A DNA stretch of 64,000 nt from Dehalococcoidales bacterium. Its GTDB lineage: Bacteria; Chloroflexota; Dehalococcoidia; Dehalococcoidales; RBG-16-60-22. This document shows, piece after piece, positions 9,327 to 11,423 of this stretch (position 1 is its first letter; each line of letters opens with the position of its first letter). Where the stretch lies: assembly GCA_034414775.1 (NCBI GenBank), contig DAOULX010000024.1, positions 24,559-88,558 of the forward strand, given 5' to 3'. The translations under genes were made by a program, and so were the position numbers. The notes below the pieces were generated by a model, which was not told the origin of the DNA, did not search any database, and worked only from the letters and a program-made list of their open reading frames with translations.

Positions 9327-9364
9327 GTTTCCGGTAGATTACAGATGTGTTACAAACGTGTTAC
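9327..9364 (-). promoter_or_regulatory. Four-part direct-repeat operator (GlnR-box-like) upstream of amt copy 1
   Basis: Minus strand GTAAC-N6-GTAAC-N6-GTAAT-N6-GAAAC with exact 11-bp period, just upstream of a TATTAT -10 (9316-9311). Confidence 0.75.
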
Positions 9365-9382
9365 GTACGGGTGGAATCTTTG

Positions 9383-10615
9383 TTAACGGAGCAGGCCTCC
9401 GTAAGCCCTTTCTCCGTGCTGGGAAAGGTCCAGGCCGACCATTTCCTCGGACTGGCTGACCCGCAGGCCTAACGTCAACGCCACCAGCTTGCCCAGGACC
9501 AGCGTAATGACGAAGGCGTAAGCGCCTACAGCCGCCAGGCCAAGGGCCTGTCTGACGAGCTGCATCCCGCTCCCTGAGACAAGACCGGCGGCCCCGGCAG
9601 GGTTCACCGCTAAGCTGGCGAAGATGCCGACAAAAACCATCCCCAGGATGCCCCCAACCCCGTGCACGGCGAACACGTCCAGCGAGTCGTCAAAACCGAG
9701 CCGGGTCTTTAAGAACAGCATGGCATAATAGCAGACGCACGCCGCAACGACGCCGACGGGAATAGCGGCCAGCGGAGTAATATAGCCGGCGGCGGGGGTC
9801 ACCGTTGCCAGCCCGGCCACGGCCCCGGTGACCATACCGAGGATAGTGGGGCGCCGTTGCCGCCAGTTTAGCATCATCCAGGTAAAGGCGGCGGCCGCGG
9901 CGGCGGTATTGGTGGTGACGAAGGCGCTGGCCGCCAGGCCACCGGCGGTCAGGGCGCTGCCGGCGTTGAAGCCGAACCACCCGAACCAGAGCAGCCCCGC
10001 CCCGAGCACTACCAGCGGTATGTTGTTGGGCTCCATGGAATCCTGGGGAAAGCCGCGGCGCCTTCCCAGCAGTAATACCAGCGCCAGGGCCGAGACGCCG
10101 GCATTAATGTGAACCACTGCACCGCCAGCGAAGTCGAGGACACCCAGATTGGCCAGCCAGCCGCCGCCCCAGACCCAGTGGGCTATCGGGCTGTACACGA
10201 GGGTCAGCCATAATGCTGAAAAAACCAGCAAGGCACTGAACTTGACTCTTTCCACTATAGCGCCGGTGAAAAGGGCAACGGTAATGATAGCGAACATTGC
10301 CTGGAAAATCATGAAGGCCAGGTGCGGAACCGTGGAGGCATACAGCGGTGAGGGATCCTGGCCGACGTTCGTGAGGCCGATGAAGTTCAGTCCGCCGATG
10401 AAGCCGCCGTAGTCGGTGCCGAAAGCTAGGCTGTAACCGTAAATTACCCAGAGCAGGCCAACCAAACCCAGGCAGACGAAGCTCATCATCAGGGTTGACA
10501 GGAGGTTCTTGCGCCGCACCATACCCCCGTAGAAAAGCGCCACACCCGGCGTCATTAGCATCACCAGCGCCGATGATACGAGAATCCAGGCGGTATCCGC
10601 TGGGCTTATGGCCAT
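9383..10615 (-). CDS. amtB: Ammonium transporter (copy 2)
   Basis: Same Amt motifs as copy 1; tandem paralogue. Confidence 0.97.
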   Translation of the reverse strand: MAISPADTAWILVSSALVMLMTPGVALFYGGMVRRKNLLSTLMMSFVCLGLVGLLWVIYGYSLAFGTDYGGFIGGLNFIGLTNVGQDPSPLYASTVPHLAFMIFQAMFAIITVALFTGAIVERVKFSALLVFSALWLTLVYSPIAHWVWGGGWLANLGVLDFAGGAVVHINAGVSALALVLLLGRRRGFPQDSMEPNNIPLVVLGAGLLWFGWFGFNAGSALTAGGLAASAFVTTNTAAAAAAFTWMMLNWRQRRPTILGMVTGAVAGLATVTPAAGYITPLAAIPVGVVAACVCYYAMLFLKTRLGFDDSLDVFAVHGVGGILGMVFVGIFASLAVNPAGAAGLVSGSGMQLVRQALGLAAVGAYAFVITLVLGKLVALTLGLRVSQSEEMVGLDLSQHGERAYGGLLR

Positions 10616-10662
10616 AAATGACCTCCCGCAATGTGAGTTATGGGTACACTTTAGCGGACTTA

Positions 10663-10709
10663 TGTTACAAACGTGTTACAAAAACGGGGAAATGTTAAGA
10701 ACATGTTTC
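10663..10709 (-). promoter_or_regulatory. GlnR-box-like direct repeats upstream of amt copy 2
   Basis: TGTTACAAACGTGTTAC (10663-10679) is identical to 9348-9364; a second pair GAAAC-N6-TTAAC lies at 10709-10694 on the minus strand. Confidence 0.7.
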
Positions 10710-10748
10710 ATGAAGGCAGGATTGATTTATTGTCAGCCGGGGCGACCG

Positions 10749-11423
10749 CTAGCTGTCTTTAACGAAGCGGTAGCCTATATTGCGGACCGTTTCAATATAG
10801 GTATGGCCAGCATCTTCAATCTTGCTGCGGAGCCGGCGCACATGGACATCCACGGTGCGGTCACCGCCGAAGTAATCATAGCCCCAGATACTGTTGAGCA
10901 GGGTCTGGCGGGTAAAAACGCGTCCCTTGTTGCTGGCCAGCAGCTTGAGAAGCTCGTACTCTTTGAAGGTGAGTTCGACGACGGCCCCGTTGACTACCAC
11001 CTCACAGGTAGCCAGGTCGATGAGGAGGCCCTTGCCTTTTATCTGCTCGGCGCTATCGGCTTCGCCGTTCTTCTTCAGGAGACGCTCTATCCTCAGGTTA
11101 AGCTCCCGAGGGTTGTAGGGAGTAACGACAAAGTCATCCACGTCAAGCCGGCTATCGATTCTGTTTACAATGTCGGACGGTATCAGCGCGATTACCGGCA
11201 GAGTCCGCCCCTTTCGGGCCTTACTGACGAGATCCCATATCTCCTCATCCGGCGCATCTTTGCCCAATTCAAGTATAAAGACATCCGGGCGGGTGTCAGC
11301 GATAGCTTCCCGGACACCATTGCTGTAAGAGGTGAAAGAGCAGGCCACGTTGTAGCGGGCCAGTCCTTCGCGGAGTACGGCCTTTGTTTCGCTGTCCTGA
11401 ACTACTGCCAGTGCGCGTACCAT
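10749..11423 (-). CDS. glnR: OmpR-family regulator with atypical receiver, GlnR-like
   Basis: C-terminus [45 protein letters not shown] closely resembles actinobacterial GlnR; receiver has Glu at the phospho-Asp site (PDVFILEL) and lacks the conserved Lys (VVTPY). Confidence 0.75.
   Translation of the reverse strand: [224 protein letters not shown]

Follow-up and report, generated by a model that had tools for sequence, protein, structure and literature searches.

The nitrogen gene cluster of a Dehalococcoidales bacterium raises the question of whether ammonium uptake under the control of GlnR, which the literature we searched treats as an actinobacterial regulator, also occurs in a different phylum, the Chloroflexi (class Dehalococcoidia and others). 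The cluster lies in a 64-kb stretch of DNA (contig DAOULX010000024.1; this whole stretch is called the window below), in which a gene for a 224-amino-acid regulator of the OmpR/PhoB family (10749-11423, minus strand) stands beside two predicted targets, the ammonium transporter genes amt2 (9383-10615, minus; Pfam PF00909, E = 4.5e-132) and amt1 (8049-9278, minus; PF00909, E = 3e-129). The regulator appears to combine a winged-helix DNA-binding domain of the GlnR type with a degenerate (pseudo-)receiver, and we think it likely that it is an orphan protein, independent of aspartate phosphorylation, that activates the amt genes through an array of direct-repeat boxes in their promoters. Comparisons with other genomes were made on labelled stretches of their DNA (loci L001-L088).

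The amt1 promoter carries four direct-repeat boxes with an 11-bp period on the minus strand, GTAAC-N6-GTAAC-N6-GTAAT-N6-GAAAC (9327-9364), the single boxes being GTAAC at 9364-9360 and again at 9353-9349, GTAAT at 9342-9338 and GAAAC at 9331-9327. A predicted -10 hexamer, TATTAT (9311-9316, minus), follows the last box at a distance of exactly 10 nt, and after it come a GGAGG ribosome-binding site and the ATG at 9278. If TATTAT is the -10 element, the boxes would span about -60 to -23, and the last of them would fall between -35 and -10. A consensus scan found no sigma-70 consensus -35 at either the amt1 or the amt2 promoter, whereas the same scan found ATGACA-17-TAAAAT in front of glnA. Four relaxed boxes at an 11-bp period were observed once, compared with 0.007 expected per 64 kb under a first-order Markov (Markov-1) model, and a four-box array arose in 2 of 300 Markov-1 simulations, or in none of the 300 once N10 and TAnnnT were also required. 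The GTAAC-N6-GTAAC pair alone is not significant in the window (4 matches at up to one mismatch versus 1.5 expected), and we therefore rely on the four-box array, on a box matrix drawn from other genomes and on conservation.

At amt2, a proximal pair of boxes (GTAAC-N6-GTAAC-A, 10663-10679, minus) is identical to the upstream pair at amt1, and a spacer of 10 nt separates it from TAAAGT (10653-10648). The shared 17-mer, TGTTACAAACGTGTTAC, has exactly two copies in the window (9348-9364 and 10663-10679), where 0.03 matches would be expected at up to three mismatches. Thus, both the four-part box over the -35 region of amt1 and the identical 17-bp core at amt2, which the preliminary description had reported, are present, and the flanks of the two core copies are as unlike as it had said. 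A distal pair, GAAAC-N6-TTAAC (10694-10709, minus), lies further upstream of amt2 and scores 18.1 with a position weight matrix of the boxes. This matrix was built only from sites in other genomes, with the window's own site left out, and its top scores in the window are those of the two amt promoters (21.0 bits, the maximum of 50 shuffles being 18.3). A further match at 41100-41116 (18.4 bits) was rejected as chance because it lies within a coding region and equals the shuffle maximum. No GlnR boxes were found in the window before glnA, the glutamate synthase (GOGAT) genes, nadE or nrpR. The boxes are real, rare by chance and, within these 64 kb, specific to the two amt promoters. In L001 and L002 the first amt gene is likewise preceded by two boxes, N10 and a -10 hexamer, and a relic of this layout survives in L086. 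In the latter, a close relative with a single amt gene, a module of two boxes, N10 and TAAAGT sits directly upstream of the four-box promoter (8960-9060), and looks like an amt2 promoter that remained after the loss of amt2, or else like a tandem promoter.

The strongest evidence for what we take to be a GlnR-type regulon comes from the conservation of the boxes in relatives. Orthologous regulator genes adjoin amt-glnK-glnA, often together with nrpR, nadE or GOGAT genes, in L001-L008, L031 and L086-L088, and the regulator gene adjoins glnA in many other Chloroflexi and Acidimicrobiia loci; arrays of at least three boxes in these loci are found almost only upstream of amt or glnA. In a gap-free alignment of 13 four-box sites from distinct genomes (the window and 12 others), box 1 reads GTAAC, box 2 (G/T)TAAC, box 3 GTAAT, with T at its fifth position in 11 of the 13 sites, and box 4 GaAAC, with A at its second position in 9 of them. 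TAnnnT stands exactly 10 nt past box 4, its T, A and T being invariant in 13/13 sites. The search pattern did not include the -10 hexamer, so the constant spacing argues independently for a promoter with a defined geometry, and the boxes are kept in register with it across genomes of the Dehalococcoidia, the Chloroflexia and other Chloroflexi. A failure of the boxes to recur in orthologous promoters had been set beforehand as an outcome that would speak against a GlnR regulon, and the opposite was found. The glnA gene is more variable in this respect. Four boxes precede it in L014, L027, L028, L031 and L034, all from other Chloroflexi, and two-box sites do so in L022, L034, L038 and L074. In the clade of the window, glnA has its own ATGACA-17-TAAAAT promoter and no GlnR-type boxes (7633-7713 of the window, minus; L001 6803-6890; L086 10990-11085; L087 10524-10605), and we conclude that the membership of glnA in the regulon differs between clades. 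The box-less promoters of this clade share a conserved upstream element, GATGT(A/G)AAA.

How might such an array work? The nearest of the known systems is that of actinobacterial GlnR, known from Streptomyces coelicolor, Mycobacterium tuberculosis (Rv0818) and Saccharopolyspora erythraea, with the structures 8HIG, 8HML, 8HIH and 4O1H in the PDB. The actinobacterial consensus is gTnAc-n6-GaAAc, repeated twice, and the co-crystallized DNA carries GTAAC-N6-GTAAC; in the activation complex at M. tuberculosis amtB, four GlnR protomers lie head-to-tail on sites a1, b1, a2 and b2, the b2 site being downstream of a non-optimal -35, with the b2 protomer touching the beta flap and sigma region 4 and the alpha C-terminal domain contacting the DFFG loop of the upstream GlnR protomer (PMC10235972). 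The window has the same GTAAC/GaAAC half-site at the same period and, as judged from sequence alone, the same four-site head-to-tail layout at amt, with the proximal site downstream of a poor -35; the loop of the regulator that corresponds to DFFG reads DYFG. It is because the amt layout matches that of the actinobacterial amtB promoter that we infer activation of amt1-glnK and amt2. According to this model, protomers would bind head-to-tail to direct repeats of (G/T)(T/A)AAC spaced 11 bp apart, with four such repeats serving amt1-glnK and a proximal and a distal pair serving amt2. The protomer furthest downstream would fall between -35 and the -10 hexamer, and the array as a whole would stand in for the missing -35 and recruit RNA polymerase much as in the actinobacterial complex, and the genes for ammonium uptake would be switched on under nitrogen scarcity. 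The gene for glnK/P-II (7714-8052, minus; Pfam PF00543) is probably co-transcribed with amt1, since its start overlaps the amt1 stop codon. Alternatively, the same protein and sites might serve repression, with the array over -35 to -23 blocking RNA polymerase when nitrogen is plentiful; the boxes do overlap the core promoter, and actinobacterial GlnR is known to repress some of its targets. We nevertheless regard a repressor as improbable, because the lack of a -35 consensus combined with a strictly spaced -10 in 13/13 sites is a signature of activator dependence, and because the identical layout at M. tuberculosis amtB is that of an activation complex.

The regulator itself is an unusual member of its family. 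Pfam recognizes only Trans_reg_C in it, with no Response_reg (PF00072) match at 1e-3. An AlphaFold2 (AF2) model nonetheless has a (beta-alpha)5 fold followed by a winged helix (mean pLDDT, the predicted local distance difference test, 79), and Foldseek matches the model to two-domain OmpR-family structures that include M. tuberculosis GlnR and 2HQR, the structure of HP1043. Foldseek ranks many OmpR-family structures equally, and the fold was therefore dropped as a marker of subfamily. A helix motif and a receiver with Glu for Asp and without the conserved Lys had been read from this DNA before; the motif occupies residues 180-199, and the receiver, when compared with that of Escherichia coli PhoB, has Gln9/Asp10 for Glu9/Asp10, Glu52 for Asp53, Ile81 for Thr83 and Thr101 for Lys105, the Thr thus being lost as well. 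Equivalents of Asp53, Thr83 and Lys105 are missing across the clade of the regulator, where the acceptor position is Glu in the window protein and in 17 of 18 other aligned members and Gln in the remaining one; actinomycete GlnRs and sister groups within the Chloroflexi (L004-L008 and others) have Asp there. The regulator gene has no histidine kinase gene beside it, and in every syntenic locus it neighbors GOGAT and amt genes. The features of a canonical two-component regulator that were looked for in the protein and its surroundings (acidic pocket, phospho-Asp, Thr/Ser, Lys, adjacent kinase and equivalog score) were not found; its best NCBIfam score of 120 bits approaches none of the equivalog cut-offs of 296-340, and NCBIfam has no GlnR model and is thus uninformative about membership in GlnR. 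With no adjacent kinase, Glu at the acceptor position and Thr and Lys gone, the regulator is an orphan and probably works without Asp phosphorylation. In this it resembles actinobacterial GlnR, which likewise has no partner kinase, has a receiver without Thr and Lys, and is linked to amt, glnA and glnK. Phosphorylation-independent, atypical regulators are also known elsewhere in the OmpR family, among them HP1043, ChxR, NblR and JadR1. Like the window regulator, these use a degenerate receiver as a module for dimerization or scaffolding and not as a phospho-switch, but their DNA motifs and regulons are different and they have no specific sequence affinity to it.

A receiver unable to accept phosphate suggests that the activity of the regulator is probably set by the amount of protein, and the cluster contains a candidate for setting it. 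A full-length homologue of NrpR, an archaeal-type nitrogen repressor, is encoded in this bacterial nitrogen cluster (3488-4489, minus; Pfam PF01995, E = 8e-74, plus the winged helix HTH_12); no NCBIfam model matches it, and its gene is syntenic with that of the regulator in L001, L004-L008, L031 and L086. The regulator gene starts 19 nt past the end of the last GOGAT gene and no minus-strand intergenic terminator was found between the GOGAT genes and the regulator gene, so they are probably on one transcript; the GOGAT-regulator synteny recurs in L004, L008, L086 and L087. The string of Fer4, GOGAT and regulator genes is headed by the best promoter of the region, a near-consensus sigma-70-type TTGACA with a 17-nt spacer and a TG-extended TATTAT (17401-17429, minus; 11/12 consensus matches). 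Starting 8 nt past its -10, and lying over the predicted transcription start, is a perfect palindrome composed of GCGGCAAAC and GTTTGCCGC (17376-17393); its core, GGCA-N6-TGCC, is NrpR-like, which makes it a candidate operator for a repressor. Promoter and palindrome form a conserved module, TTGACA-17-TAnnAT followed after 4-5 nt by a 22-bp palindrome AT(G/A)CGG(C/T)AA-N-CG-N-TT(G/A)CCG(C/T)AT, which stands ahead of the Fer4-GOGAT-regulator string both in the window and in L086 (2288-2345) and, in a looser form with a TTGCCA -35 and a 12-nt gap, in L087 (2580-2645) and L088. In two loci the module stands ahead of the regulator gene itself and also lies against the four-box array of the second amt gene (L001 2845-2900 and 5136-5151; L002 5815-5875 and 11971-11986), and it is seen in L007 as well (11395-11447).

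The methanogen NrpR operator is an inverted repeat, GGAA-N6-TTCC (PMC4335013). Exact copies of it occur in the window at chance level only, with none in the cluster. The euryarchaeal system and the one proposed here share a PF01995 protein encoded in the cluster and a palindrome of 4-6-4 shape, GG(C/T)A-N6-T(G/A)CC, but here the host is bacterial, the half-sites have other bases, and the candidate operator seems to govern the gene of a second regulator instead of, or besides, structural genes. Actinobacterial GlnR differs on this point too, the window gene being embedded in a GOGAT-amt cluster behind an NrpR-like candidate operator. One possibility is that the transcription unit with the regulator gene in it is repressed by NrpR, which in methanogens is a sensor of 2-oxoglutarate; lifting of this repression would let the regulator accumulate and would thereby turn on ammonium uptake. 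What the analysis shows directly are the features of the sequence, how far they are conserved, the synteny and the resemblance to GlnR; binding of the regulator to its boxes, activation over repression and this NrpR tier are inferred. NrpR was also considered as the reader of the direct repeats and was rejected, since it binds inverted repeats (PMC4335013), and since boxes and regulator are also found together where the fetched flanks showed no nrpR (L014, L027, L028 and L034).

Is the regulator then a GlnR? With the full-length protein, the best matches in the PDB are GlnR of S. erythraea (8HIG, 5e-33) and of M. tuberculosis (8HIH, 1e-32), GlnR taking the top score of 117.7 bits and RegX3 ranking behind it; with the DNA-binding domain alone, the GlnR entries 8HIG, 8HML and 8HIH score 100-105 bits and the next family, VbrR, 83. 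The five best matches of this domain among plasmid-collection records (7.3 Gb) are all actinobacterial, and they include a Nonomuraea protein (62.6% identity, 115 bits) that translates to a textbook GlnR and a Rhodococcus one that is annotated glnR. GlnR is also the best match of the domain in a complete actinomycete chromosome, that of Nonomuraea; the replicon in question (PLSDB NZ_LT559118.1, L089 and L093), 11.85 Mb long and from N. gerenzanensis, is filed as a plasmid and is evidently a chromosome. The residues that contact DNA and confer GTAAC specificity have been listed (PMC10235972), and the regulator is identical at 15/15 of those in S. erythraea GlnR and 14/14 of those in M. tuberculosis GlnR. 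Canonical regulators match at fewer of these positions (PhoB and YycF at 12/15, others at 7-10/15), as does a canonical OmpR-family paralogue in the window (35210-35914, plus), which matches few of them.

Phylogeny and profile comparisons extend these results. A neighbor-joining tree of residues 75-222 was built with 11 canonical regulators (six E. coli families, YycF, VxrB, a KdpE-like protein from Sinorhizobium, a canonical regulator of Nonomuraea and the window paralogue), RegX3, MtrA, NblR and RpaB not being sampled. These 11 split from the group made up of the window protein and bona fide GlnRs in 95/100 bootstraps, and an earlier tree with 7 canonical regulators gave the same split in 199/200. 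A fragment of VbrR comprising its DNA-binding domain was dropped as an outgroup because it nested in the bush and left no clean ingroup; full-length VxrB and others were substituted for it. The profile of the DNA-binding domain has scores of 238 with actinomycete GlnR, 219 with Acidimicrobiia GlnR and 198 with canonical regulators. When genomes were scanned with two conserved peptides, the matches formed a continuum that begins with Dehalococcoidia, Chloroflexia, SAR202, Tepidiformaceae and Anaerolineae and goes on to the GlnRs of Acidimicrobiia and Actinomycetes, whose N-termini match the GlnR receiver structures 4O1H and 4O1I, with a few genomes of Omnitrophota, Armatimonadota and Planctomycetia; clustering of the family at 50% identity gives at least 150 clusters with scores higher than the GlnR level. 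The regulator has its close homologues in metagenome-assembled genomes of Chloroflexi and Dehalococcoidales, where the source annotations call them "PhoP" or a generic response regulator.

A number of observations nevertheless weigh against the interpretation that we favor. In a tree of the DNA-binding domain alone, the split from YycF- and VxrB-like regulators is recovered in just 7/100 bootstraps, and the identity of this domain to GlnRs, 50-58%, is followed at 47-48% by the closest canonical regulators. The receiver profile scores 105 in hhalign against canonical receivers, compared with 61 against those of Acidimicrobiia GlnR and 31 against those of actinomycete GlnR. Likewise, the phmmer alignment to GlnR begins only at residue 70-75, residues 1-70 not being alignable, and by these measures the receiver is not of the 4O1H type. 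The conserved, unphosphorylated acceptor Asp of actinobacterial GlnR, Asp50, which stabilizes the homodimer, is replaced by Glu52, a change that may preserve the charge interaction. The distal boxes at amt2 end 14 nt upstream of the proximal pair, 8 bp off the 11-bp register; the same offset recurs in L002 (10620-10670), which suggests that it is functional. Since glnA lacks boxes in the clade of the window, which sets this clade apart from actinobacterial GlnR, the regulon may take in less than that of Actinobacteria does. The WalR/YycF box, TGTWAH-N5-TGTWAH, resembles the motif, so that a related regulator could in principle read the boxes. As for the proposed upper tier, the NrpR homologue probably binds the palindrome, but the evidence consists only of co-location and the 4-6-4 shape, and L003-L006, L008 and L031 have nrpR and no palindrome of this form.

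Part of this evidence could mean that the regulator is not a GlnR by descent, but a PhoB/WalR-like offshoot that lost phosphorylation independently and whose GTAAC-type specificity and nitrogen regulon converged on those of GlnR or were retained; "GlnR outside Actinobacteria" would then be a matter of analogy and of shared ancestry of the DNA-binding domain only. WalR/YycF and PhoB do have the same two-domain fold, a similar recognition helix (RTVDVxxRRLR) and tandem direct repeats at an 11-bp period, and YycF shares the WGYDYFGD loop besides its 12/15 contacts; the nearer affinity of the receiver to canonical ones fits such an origin as well, as do the poorly separating DNA-binding-domain tree and the star-like backbone inside the GlnR-containing group of the longer one. 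WalR/YycF and PhoB differ in being phosphorylated by partner kinases and in having the Asp, Thr and Lys intact. On the other hand, the bootstrap support from residues 75-222 and the higher profile score of the DNA-binding domain against GlnR than against canonical regulators both oppose this origin. So do the identical four-site promoter layout, including the protomer downstream of -35, and the gradual series of intermediates that runs through SAR202, Tepidiformaceae and Acidimicrobiia, with many members adjoining glnA. On balance we consider a separate descent unlikely, if still worth serious consideration. Less plausible by far is a reading in which another OmpR-family protein from elsewhere in the genome, for instance a canonical PhoP/WalR-like one, recognizes the boxes and the adjacent regulator has other targets. 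The likeness of the motif to WalR-type direct repeats and the fact that just 64 kb of the genome are visible could be cited in its favor, but regulator gene and boxes are found together in one locus after another of distant Chloroflexi, irrespective of what else lies nearby, all base-contacting residues match those of a protein crystallized on GTAAC, and the paralogue at 35210-35914, with its few matching contacts, is the sole other OmpR-family gene in the window.

We therefore return to the view that the regulator is of the GlnR type, and regard it as a variant and not a strict orthologue, because its receiver is nearer to canonical ones and the DNA-binding-domain tree lacks resolution. Its DNA-binding half would be that of a GlnR, joined to a less diverged, separately recognizable pseudo-receiver. 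The proposal that the protein groups with GlnR is upheld in part, by the structure searches, the best matches, the contact residues and the tree of residues 75-222, but not by the tree of the DNA-binding domain alone, and the term "actinobacterial-type" suits the DNA-binding domain and the promoter layout but not the receiver. The larger proposal of the preliminary description, a GlnR regulon outside the Actinobacteria, came through both of the refuting tests that could be computed and is supported, with the reservation that the receiver is not GlnR-like.

The genes of interest in the nitrogen cluster, as identified from the open reading frame list and Pfam, are all on the minus strand. Transcription of the upstream string would begin with the Fer4 gene (about 17346-16862), which is separated from the gene for an FAD/NAD(P) oxidoreductase (16410-15013) by a small open reading frame of 122 amino acids, and would continue through the glutamate synthase genes (11443-14889). 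These are split in archaeal style (11443-17346 with the genes just named) into separate genes for the amidotransferase (14889-13759), the FMN/4Fe-4S protein (13730-12225) and the GXGXG protein (about 12219-11443). Downstream of glnK come glnA (7632-6271), nadE (6252-4495) and nrpR. Among genomes, the best match belongs to a member of the Dehalococcoidaceae; its Amt, P-II, GlnA and NrpR proteins share 78-84% identity with those of the window. The paralogue at 35210-35914, which has the acidic DD pair, Asp, Thr and Lys all present and is 30% identical to the 224-residue regulator, served as the in-genome outgroup. We also noted a dispersed intergenic repeat of about 100 bp that begins with GTCATTCTGAGG and ends with CCTTCGCTTCGCTCAGGATGA and has the look of a repetitive extragenic palindrome (REP) or a miniature inverted-repeat transposable element (MITE). 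Its copies in the window are at 2586-2606, 2637-2657, 14911-14931, 39219-39239, 46293-46313 and 60470-60490, one of which fills the space that separates the FAD oxidoreductase gene from that of the GOGAT amidotransferase, and it is multicopy in L086 too (8676-9095 and 10658-11085).

A literature search found no paper linking an OmpR-type GlnR to Chloroflexi or Dehalococcoidia, but its coverage was incomplete and an earlier description is possible. GlnR-type control is probably not confined to the Actinobacteria, and the family to which this regulator belongs is a large one whose regulon is conserved in Dehalococcoidia, SAR202, Chloroflexia and their relatives. The GlnR DNA-binding domain and its four-protomer layout would thus have originated before the Actinobacteria-Chloroflexi split, or else have been transferred. 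The findings also provide a model of a nitrogen regulon for groups that are hard to culture and environmentally relevant, such as the organohalide respirers and marine SAR202. More tentatively, and with the odds somewhat against so broad a claim, GlnR-type control of ammonium uptake could be an ancient trait of Chloroflexi and Actinobacteria, perhaps of the wider Terrabacteria, to which the Dehalococcoidia have added a two-tier circuit in which a 2-oxoglutarate-sensing NrpR gates the regulator and the abundance of the regulator activates amt. The link between the palindrome and NrpR offers a testable route by which a nitrogen signal may reach a regulator that is not phosphorylatable. If it is true, the two-tier circuit would give a concrete answer to an old question, namely how switching is achieved in a GlnR that is an orphan and is not phosphorylated.

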